Positions 11,892 to 12,211 of a DNA stretch of 64,000 nt are shown piece after piece. Source of the DNA: Escherichia phage PHB11; sequence record MK524176.1; one strand, given 5' to 3'. The notes beneath the pieces were generated by a model. That model saw only the letters and a list, made by a program, of their open reading frames with translations, had not been told where the DNA came from and searched no databases. Position 1 is the stretch's first letter, and the number at the start of each line of letters is the position of its first letter. The translations under genes and the position numbers were made by a program.

Positions 11892-11919
11892 TGACATTGA
11901 GATGTGACCACTTTATAGT
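11892..11919 (+). promoter_or_regulatory. Sigma70-like promoter (TTGACA-16-TATAGT)
   Basis: Upstream AAAGTTG; precedes a roughly 290-nt ORF-free region before the next tRNA. Confidence 0.5.
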
Positions 11920-11924
11920 AACTA

Positions 11925-12205
11925 AAATACTTCATAACATGTATAATTCAAACACCAATACATGAGCGTTAGACGTAACACAATGTGGGGAAATTTGTTG
12001 TACATATTCTGAATAGTTTTCGTTGCGTAGCGTCTATTTTGCAAATTTAAAATAAATGCAAACGACAATGTTTTTCTGGCAGTAGCTTGATAGGCTAAAC
12101 ACCAGTGAGGTCTTCCAATCCCTCATCAAAGAATTTGGCGTACTAGCCCACGGTATGATTAATAAGGTGGGCATCTTTAAGGGCTTTCTAAGAGAGTCTT
12201 TAAAG
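11925..12205 (+). ncRNA. Candidate promoter-driven non-coding transcript (ORF-free)
   Basis: No ORF of 60 aa or more on either strand between the promoter and tRNA-Arg; contains a hairpin TGAGG-N10-CCTCA near 12107. Confidence 0.25.
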
Positions 12206-12211
12206 ATTAAT

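Follow-up and report, generated by a model that had tools for sequence, protein, structure and literature searches.

A probable tmRNA-derived RNA with an arm complementary to host tmRNA in the tRNA gene array of a Felix O1-like phage and in unrelated phage groups

The stretch of DNA at 11892-12211 of Escherichia phage PHB11 (record MK524176.1) was analyzed within a window of 64,000 nt. The window belongs to a Felix O1-like phage (Felixounavirus), and the stretch shares 99% identity with Escherichia phage JH2, UAB_Phi87, and many others. It is enclosed by an array of 26 tRNA genes at 10515-16100; its neighbors are tRNA-Ile(gat) at 11801-11875 and tRNA-Arg(tct), which was confirmed at 12212-12288. 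A preliminary description of the locus had noted a promoter followed by about 290 nt without open reading frames (ORFs), to be read as a long tRNA leader or as a non-coding RNA. Both readings hold, as a conserved, structured RNA with a predicted promoter of its own lies ahead of tRNA-Arg. It is highly probable that this RNA is derived from transfer-messenger RNA (tmRNA, encoded by ssrA), is devoid of a tRNA-like domain, and carries an arm directed against host tmRNA. The tmRNA-SmpB system is the main bacterial system of ribosome rescue and protein tagging and represents an antibiotic target. The locus contains the following features; ssrA positions are those of Escherichia coli, and MFE denotes the minimum free energy fold.

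11891-11919, plus strand: sigma-70-type promoter, TTGACA (11891-11896), 17-nt spacer, TATAGT (11914-11919), matching the consensus at 11 of 12 positions
11925-12019, plus strand: 5' hairpin H-I, an optional long stem-loop from promoter to seed (MFE)
12014-12042, plus strand: antisense arm, complement of ssrA nt 77-106 (A-rich linker, resume codon, codons 1-6)
12014-12023, plus strand: seed TAGTTTTCGT of the arm, a 10-nt exact complement to ssrA 97-106
12043-12057, plus strand: A-rich lead-in to the resume codon, AAAUUUAAAAUAAAU, from alignment with ssrA (U at -5 and A at -4 match)
12058-12093, plus strand: tag frame GCA AAC GAC AAT GTT TTT CTG GCA GTA GCT (ANDNVFLAVA), then TGA and TAG
12076-12105, plus strand: helix-5-like hairpin P5, CUGG/CCAG plus GC/GC with the stop codon in its loop, invariant and 100% paired
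12106-12138, plus strand: pseudoknot A, UGAGG/CCUCA (12106-12110 with 12121-12125) and CCAA (12115-12118) with UUGG (12135-12138)
12139-12172, plus strand: pseudoknot B, stem 1 CGUAC/GUAUG (12139-12143 with 12153-12157), conserved loop GAUUAAUAA
12146-12151 with 12167-12172, plus strand: pseudoknot B, stem 2 GCCCAC/GUGGGC
12173-12207, plus strand: 3' hairpin H-II, 16 bp with a 3-nt loop, ending 4 nt before tRNA-Arg (MFE)
12212-12288, plus strand: tRNA-Arg(UCU), 69.7 bits

The promoter ranked first among 17 promoter-like sites found between 10 and 17 kb. It had previously been placed at 11892-11919 with a spacer of 16 nt; the promoter itself was verified as a consensus match, but it starts at 11891 and its spacer comprises 17 nt. 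It is identical or nearly so in Felix O1-like relatives, and phages pIS4-A and KLPPOU148 each contain one promoter-like site at the same position relative to the seed as in the window. Transcription is predicted to start at about 11925-11927. Neither a terminator-like site between the RNA and tRNA-Arg nor a Rho-independent terminator of the type usual for Hfq-dependent small RNAs was found. Since no terminator intervenes, cleavage by RNase P at 12211/12212, the 5' end of tRNA-Arg, would set the 3' end of the phage RNA. Presumably, an RNA of about 285 nt is thus transcribed from its own promoter and released from the tRNA-Arg precursor. The fold of 11925-12211 reached a z-score of -3.2, and none of 200 shuffled sequences folded as well; all folds were computed without pseudoknot energies. 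As stated earlier, no ORF of 60 or more codons exists on either strand of 11920-12211, the longest being two of 46 and 48 aa on the minus strand. The assignment as an RNA gene is supported by conservation across phage families, by covariation, and by the fact that other lineages have lost the small ORFs.

The conservation analysis suggested in the preliminary description revealed a core shared by unrelated phage families. A distant BLAST search with 11876-12211 matched 614 phage records. The core at 12014-12172 is common to Ackermannviridae, Chaseviridae, Jedunavirus, Roufvirus, siphophages of about 47 kb, and SSU5-like phage-plasmids. Within it, a block of about 100-125 nt (approximately 12049-12173) is 72-87% identical between unrelated groups, namely Vi01-like Ackermannviridae, the Jedunavirus KLPPOU148, Aeromonas phage pIS4-A (Roufvirus), the 47-kb siphophages of Klebsiella and Escherichia, and SSU5-like phage-plasmids, for example Cyrano; a more divergent copy is present in the Chaseviridae phage SKA49. 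Several phages have the core with no tRNA beside it. Scanning viral contigs for an exact pattern yielded at least 120 loci in at least 34 sequence clusters (loci are denoted by L numbers below). In bacterial reference genomes the pattern was detected in only three Enterobacteriaceae contigs, one of them of 108 kb. We read this distribution as that of an element carried by phages and phage-plasmids whose hosts are limited to Enterobacterales and Aeromonas. The copy in SKA49 (L188, about 700-975) was missed by the tag pattern. It contains a 5' hairpin as in the window, the seed UAGUUUUC, the tag ANDSEMRVAA, and both pseudoknots with compensatory changes; hence, the family is wider than the pattern scans show. 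The counts of 136 elements, 36 nucleotide versions, and 48 distinct cores used below were taken among the matches listed.

Judged by alignment, the 3' part of the RNA is clearly homologous to the message region of E. coli ssrA. The host counterpart of lead-in and frame reads ...AAAAAAUAGUC / GCA AAC GAC GAA AAC UAC GCU UUA GCA GCU UAA, and the consensus ...AUAAAUGCAAACGA... of the Rfam family tmRNA_permuted aligns at the same region. The tag codons of the phage RNA span 12058-12087, and the stop codon at 12088-12090 is located in the loop of P5, an arrangement which we take to match helix 5 of tmRNA. Throughout the family the tag follows the pattern AN[DE]xx[YF]LAVA, with lineage versions ANEEVYLAVA, ANEEMYLAVA, ANDEQFLAVA, ANDNQYLAVA, ANDNTFLAVA, and similar ones. 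A second scan with a pattern free of the tag added ANEEMYLAAA, AKDDQFLAVA, ANSDQYLAVA, and ANDAQFLAVA; in the lineage of the last one, the peptide pattern was retained through three synonymous changes. The 10-codon frame was intact in all 136 elements among the matches listed, one of which has 11 codons. None of the 36 nucleotide versions had an internal stop codon in the tag frame; in the other two frames, 34 and 13 versions did. Codon 6 was exclusively TAT, TAC, TTC, or TTT, encoding Tyr or Phe; codon 10 was GCT, GCC, or GCG, and the terminator was TAA, TGA, or TAG. This conservation is a signature at the level of codons and not just of RNA, and the frame therefore looks translated. Conventional initiation is unlikely, because in the window no in-frame ATG, GTG, or TTG is found between the upstream stop codon and GCA.

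The secondary structure downstream of the frame is equally conserved. The motif TGAGG-N10-CCTCA, already noted as a local hairpin, was placed at 12106-12125 and proved to be a genuine hairpin with compensatory changes across phage families. It forms the first helix of pseudoknot A, both helices of which contain three pairs each that were changed on both sides. The helix of pseudoknot B included in the covariation test as helix 5 was 100% paired with two pairs showing double changes, and stem 2 of this pseudoknot exists in at least seven different complementary versions. In an alignment of 30 sequences, 95% of the cells were paired as compared to 31-45% when the partners were slid against each other. 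Eight pairs were changed on both sides (58 cells), and none of 500 shuffles matched the observed covariation score.

The 5' part of the core is complementary to host tmRNA. Its most conserved motif, (U)AGUUUUCGU(C), is the exact reverse complement of E. coli tag codons 3-6 (GAC GAA AAC UAC). Exact complements, local alignments, and duplexes of short arms were used to assess complementarity. In 44 of the 48 distinct cores among the matches listed, the longest exact complement to the 363-nt ssrA fell at nt 96/97-104/108, and the seed is extended on different sides in different lineages (AGUUUUCGUC, UAGUUUUCGU, CGUAGUUUUCGU). Alignment scores of the 5' domain were 24-45 against the reverse complement of ssrA and 12-21 against the phage's own frame; as an example, in locus L009 AGUUUUCGUCACGUUAGCGAC-----UUUGCGGACUUUUUA aligns against AGUUUUCGU--CGUUUGCGACUAUUUUUUGCGG-CUUUUUA. 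Two designs of the arm were distinguished. Felix-type, SSU5-type, and related lineages pair continuously with ssrA from about nt 77 to 106, and the siphophage, Vi01, and pIS4-A types skip nt 82-86 but extend their pairing to the 3' strand of pseudoknot 1 (nt 68-81); both designs remain complementary to host tmRNA. Duplexes of a 50-nt arm with ssrA 60-125 yielded -23 to -39 kcal/mol, with at most one of 200 shuffles performing as well, and were always stronger than duplexes with the phage's own frame (-15 to -25 kcal/mol). For the arm of the window the value was -29.9 kcal/mol (z = -4.2).

The arm apparently discriminates between the host message and its own. Over a 12-nt seed window, a mean of 9.8 Watson-Crick pairs is formed with host codons and of 5.7 with the homologous codons of the same phage; the corresponding values for the seed in PHB11 are 11 and 5 out of 12. 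By this measure, the phage frame is one that encodes a similar peptide in nucleotides with which its own arm cannot pair, codons 3-6 being recoded. When the full-length RNA was cofolded with ssrA, the duplex of 12014-12042 with ssrA 77-106 was kept with a net gain of -7.3 kcal/mol, and the seed duplex was present in the cofolds of four out of five lineages tested. In three lineages the promoters put the seed at the 5' end of the RNA. Among these are many Felix-type relatives that lack hairpin H-I, so that the promoter abuts the seed. H-I is found ahead of the seed in the window and also in SKA49, and Vi01-type loci contain analogous 5' hairpins with compensatory changes. The tag region of tmRNA is presumably identical in Salmonella, Klebsiella, and other hosts.

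The RNA has no tRNA-like domain, and none for it turned up in the neighboring gaps of the array. ARAGORN, run on the window and on 125 loci, identified no tmRNA in the window. In the scan against Rfam proposed earlier, the tmRNA-type matches stayed below the gathering threshold of 47 bits: 8.3-15.2 bits for tmRNA (RF00023) and 20.3-25.8 bits for tmRNA_permuted (RF04321), the higher value of which borrows the T arm of tRNA-Ile; tmRNA_permuted nevertheless aligns at the tag. The sole T arm outside annotated tRNAs, at 11419-11435, is part of a separate permuted tRNA-like module. A scan of the 64-kb window for a T arm followed by NNNNUNN and ACCA (G3-U70 type) retrieved only ordinary tRNA-Leu and tRNA-Ala, and no homologue of SmpB is encoded in the window. 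Upstream of the frame, no consistent pairing corresponding to pseudoknot 1 or helix 2 was detected; this segment aligns to the reverse complement of ssrA. In the hairpin-less Felix-type relatives, pIS4-A, and KLPPOU148, the promoter is located a few bases upstream of the 5' motif and thus leaves no room for an acceptor strand.

A closing helix CAGUGCUCUUUCC/GGUAAGAGCAUUG, which would have a G-U pair at position 3, was considered for the 47-kb siphophages and rejected; its strands form separate hairpins with variable inserts, as concluded from compensatory changes between L002 and L100 and from the lack of the 3' strand in L100. A 'permuted tmRNA' called by ARAGORN in L102 extends over three tRNAs, draws on the D-arm region of tRNA-Lys, and misreads the permuted tRNA-like module. 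Finally, the segment 12455-12537, considered as an acceptor piece, is a degenerate tRNA-Trp instead.

Host ribosome rescue is probably either blocked or reprogrammed by the phage RNA. The resume context and first codons, UGCAAACGA, are nearly invariant in the family and are the same as in the host over GCAAACGA. The combination of a host-masking arm, a short linker, an invariant resume context, and a frame resistant to the arm resembles a knock-down-and-replace design. The 5' arm would pair with the linker, the resume codon, and the first six codons of host tmRNA and would thereby hide the host frame. The docked RNA would then borrow the alanine-charged tRNA-like domain of the host molecule together with SmpB to enter stalled ribosomes, and rescued ribosomes would read the phage frame and add ...ANDNVFLAVA in place of ...ANDENYALAA. 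In effect, the RNA would be a replacement message acting in trans. A tRNA-like domain of its own would be dispensable, since docking would tether the phage RNA to a molecule having one. The AAND..Y/F N-terminal pattern, which we assume to be read by SspB on the E. coli tag, is retained in the phage tag. We prefer this complete scheme of docking, masking of the host frame, and supply of a phage frame to the alternatives and rate it at slightly below even odds. Somewhat more tentatively, we propose that a widespread family of phage RNAs reprograms trans-translation in trans, which would constitute the first tmRNA split between host and virus and the first viral takeover of ribosome rescue.

Several points weigh against reprogramming. 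The mechanism was deduced from sequence in all its steps, and we know of no precedent for a tmRNA that receives its message in trans. Held by a duplex, the frame might not load into the mRNA channel of the ribosome, and any pairing that extends past ssrA nt 79 requires pseudoknot 1 to be opened. The gain in the cofold (-7.3 kcal/mol) is modest, and the MFE dimer of one lineage does not contain the duplex. In the window the seed is partly paired inside the 5' hairpin, where GUUU (12016-12019) in the 3' strand of H-I pairs with AAAU (11925-11928), and the arm can also pair with its own resume region. Tags ending in LVA are strong ClpX degrons; ...LAVA may likewise be one, which would cloud the benefit of a new tag. 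Furthermore, E. coli ssrA represented the tmRNA of every host, the control sequences were shuffled by mononucleotides, and most loci were retrieved by a pattern requiring the tag, which only the second scan did not include.

The foremost competing explanation is a pure antisense RNA against tmRNA, whose arm blocks the host frame or triggers cleavage and thus stops tagging during infection. The tmRNA-like 3' part would then remain untranslated and serve as a scaffold, a stabilizer, a self-masking partner of the arm, or a decoy for tmRNA-binding factors. All complementarity data agree with it, as do the seed at the RNA 5' end in three lineages, the absence of a tRNA-like domain, and the ability of the arm to fold back onto its own resume region. 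However, an antisense function alone leaves unexplained why the frame is free of stop codons, why codon 6 encodes only Tyr or Phe, why changes are synonymous and stop codons interchangeable, and why the resume context is retained; we therefore consider it rather unlikely. A true two-piece phage tmRNA was also considered, with the present RNA as its coding piece and an acceptor piece (T arm, G3-U70, CCA) elsewhere in the phage genome. The ARAGORN call in one relative, which joins an upstream T-arm piece to the tag, would fit such a molecule, and so would tmRNA_permuted as the best, though sub-threshold, Rfam family and the T-arm-like inserts or odd tRNA-like genes beside the core in some lineages. 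Yet the T-arm piece of the window (11419-11435) resides in a closed permuted tRNA-like module with C3-G70 instead of G3-U70, and no spare G3-U70/ACCA acceptor exists within the 64-kb window, which is part of the genome. Moreover, the neighboring tRNA-like modules vary by lineage with the core alone being shared, and it is to host tmRNA, not to a phage partner, that the 5' arm is complementary. A split phage tmRNA is accordingly improbable.

The location in a tRNA array, ahead of a long hairpin like those preceding other tRNAs, together with the proximity of tRNA-Arg(UCU) in two other lineages, would be expected of a passive spacer or processing leader which serves the maturation of tRNA-Arg by RNase III, RNase E, or RNase P and in which the tmRNA-like part is a decaying relic of a captured ssrA. 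We judge this to be very improbable, as several phages lack tRNAs next to the core; besides, a relic would hardly have preserved an intact frame and covarying pseudoknots through deep divergence, nor an arm with a better match to the host sequence than to its own copy. A minus-strand gene for a small protein, of 46 aa (12034-12174) or 48 aa (11922-12068), can practically be dismissed. Such ORFs are present in the window, and a few GenBank records annotate a 'hypothetical protein', but in SSU5-type, Vi01-type, pIS4-A-type, and other lineages stop codons interrupt the 46-aa frame despite conserved DNA, and substitutions track the pairing of the plus-strand RNA, including G-U pairs.

The phage RNA was compared to known systems. 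Features common to it and one-piece tmRNA (SsrA, RF00023) are the A-rich lead-in, the resume codon in GCA AAC GA..., and a tag of 10 codons similar to ANDENYALAA; in both, the stop codon lies in the loop of helix 5 or its counterpart, and pseudoknots follow the frame. In contrast to one-piece tmRNA, the phage RNA lacks an acceptor stem, a T arm, a CCA end, and a closing helix 2; two pseudoknots follow the frame whereas E. coli tmRNA has three, and the antisense arm replaces pseudoknot 1. The two-piece (permuted) tmRNAs of alpha-proteobacteria, cyanobacteria, and others (RF04321) likewise keep the coding piece apart from the aminoacylated 3' end. True coding pieces of this type, however, have the 5' acceptor strand at their start, and their pairing partner is an acceptor piece from the same gene; the phage RNA has neither, and its one evident pairing partner is the message region of host tmRNA.

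Other derivatives of tmRNA are known from phages. A census of 2014, covering RefSeq viral genomes to November 2012, listed phage ssrA only in mycobacteriophages and none in enterobacterial phages, and the tmRNA of Bacillus phage G is cited separately therein (PMC4131195). A tmRNA fragment of mycobacteriophage DS6A, consisting of the tRNA-like domain only, is thought to interfere with host trans-translation (PMC4131195). The RNA described here thus joins this fragment, the tmRNAs of Bxz1-like phages, and that of phage G as a phage-borne tmRNA derivative. DS6A keeps the tRNA-like half, which would titrate SmpB, whereas the present RNA consists of the message half with an additional antisense arm. 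In the literature, which was covered incompletely, we found no published description of this RNA or of an enterobacterial phage carrying or targeting tmRNA.

Base-pairing RNAs of phages and prophages acting on host RNAs are represented by the anti-small RNAs AgvB and AsxR of prophages of enterohemorrhagic E. coli. Like these, the RNA is encoded by a mobile element, exposes a short seed, and has a non-coding host RNA as its apparent target; it differs in that the target would be tmRNA rather than a regulatory small RNA and in its conserved, apparently translated frame and tmRNA-type pseudoknots. Stable RNAs of phage tRNA clusters are exemplified by species 1 and 2 of T4 (rnaC and rnaD), which are small stable RNA genes in a phage tRNA array freed by tRNA-processing enzymes, as is proposed here. 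To our knowledge, the T4 RNAs do not resemble tmRNA.

If the proposed mechanism is true, it adds a new layer of host takeover in carriers that include therapy-relevant Felix O1-like, Vi01-like, SSU5-like, and Klebsiella phages. It would also represent a new mode of tmRNA function, with the message supplied in trans, and a natural means to inhibit or retarget trans-translation. Furthermore, the element accounts for 'non-coding' DNA that is unannotated or annotated as 'hypothetical protein' in hundreds of genomes, and it indicates that phage tRNA arrays conceal RNA genes overlooked by tRNA and Rfam scanners.

Hairpin H-II downstream of the core is likely a processing or insulating element and possibly an RNase III site; in other lineages a different long hairpin occupies its position. 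In the array of PHB11, near-perfect long hairpins were found at 11496-11637, 12804-12893, and 12173-12207 with arms of 22, 26, and 16 bp, respectively, each closing a long gap in front of a tRNA. All three end with ...AAAGAUnnAAU, and the other two precede tRNA-Lys and tRNA-Leu. They appear to form a family of elements for processing or insulation and may act as RNase III sites or insulators. The other gaps of the array showed no homology to the modules flanking the core in other phages.

Additionally, the array contains two unusual tRNA-like elements. The gap at 11186-11641 harbors a circularly permuted tRNA-like module at 11386-11473, with the order anticodon-type arm UUUCU/AGAAA, T arm GAAGG-UUCGAUU-CCUUC, acceptor 3' strand ACUCGGC, a 4-nt loop, acceptor 5' strand GUCGAGU, and D arm GUGU-AAUGGUA-GCAC, enclosed by the long-range stem AGACCGU...ACGGUCU. 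Its counterpart in L102 has the acceptor ACCCUUC-G-CCA-AACA-GAAGGGU with compensatory changes and an encoded CCA. The second element, at 12455-12537, was missed by ARAGORN and Rfam. It has the acceptor GUGGGAC/GUCCCAU, G73, an encoded CCA, and a 9-nt anticodon loop CCUCCAAAA containing CCA. Since tRNA-Trp(cca) was called at the same place in L079 and L118, it is a degenerate or unusual tRNA-Trp.

Further tRNA-like RNAs were observed around the core in relatives. In the Felix-type loci L020, L023, L054, L079, and L111, a gene missed by ARAGORN replaces tRNA-Arg(UCU) at +155 to +237 from the tag. It combines the acceptor CGGGGCG/CGCCUCG, G3-U70, A73, and CCA (alanine-type identity) with the anticodon arm GCGGU-CUUCUAA-ACCGC, anticodon UCU, and has no normal D arm. 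It may be an AGA-reading tRNA charged by alanyl-tRNA synthetase. Salmonella phage Vi01 (L002; 2182-2329 and about 2790-2925) and L100 contain more odd tRNA-like RNAs not called by ARAGORN. One of the Vi01 type combines the acceptor UGCGGUG/CACCGCA with both a D and a T arm and an insert of about 80 nt; in another, GCCGUU.../AACGGC-U-CCA is accompanied by a long internal helix and the T-arm-like GGGUUCGACUCCC.

The 47-kb siphophage contigs L009, L022, L036, L042, and L045 carry a 13-bp helix GGUAAGRGCAUUG / CAGUGCUCUUUCC on both flanks of the core, at -140 to +330 of the tag. It is extended by 6-10 bp and capped by highly variable inserts, some with T arms; an insert that is upstream of the core in one phage may be located downstream of it in a different one. 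An additional module, with GUUGUGGUG/CACCACAAC as its closing strands, comes next and is tRNA-like in L045.

The decoder of the rare codon AGA, tRNA-Arg(UCU), is located near the core in three groups, namely Felix-type phages, pIS4-A-type siphophages, and L042; such loci include L005, L010, L013, L027, L040, and L042. Tagging by tmRNA is classically provoked by rare AGA codons. The proximity may have a biological meaning, or the two genes may share a mobile cassette.

The region 8935-10350, immediately ahead of the tRNA array, encodes a 471-aa 'vWFA protein' with DUF2828 and DUF7788. Its layout of a helical N-terminal part and a vWA-like C-terminal part recalls Ro60; no match to the Pfam family TROVE and, by sequence, none in the PDB was obtained. 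A Ro60/Y-RNA module was considered on account of this protein and rejected, as neither the protein nor the tRNA-like element at 11386-11473 explains the stretch 11892-12211. Within the array, 13232-13645 encodes a 137-aa protein with a weak match to HNH endonucleases (E = 0.005, below the Pfam cut-off), and 14183-14740 encodes a DUF7338 protein of 185 aa.

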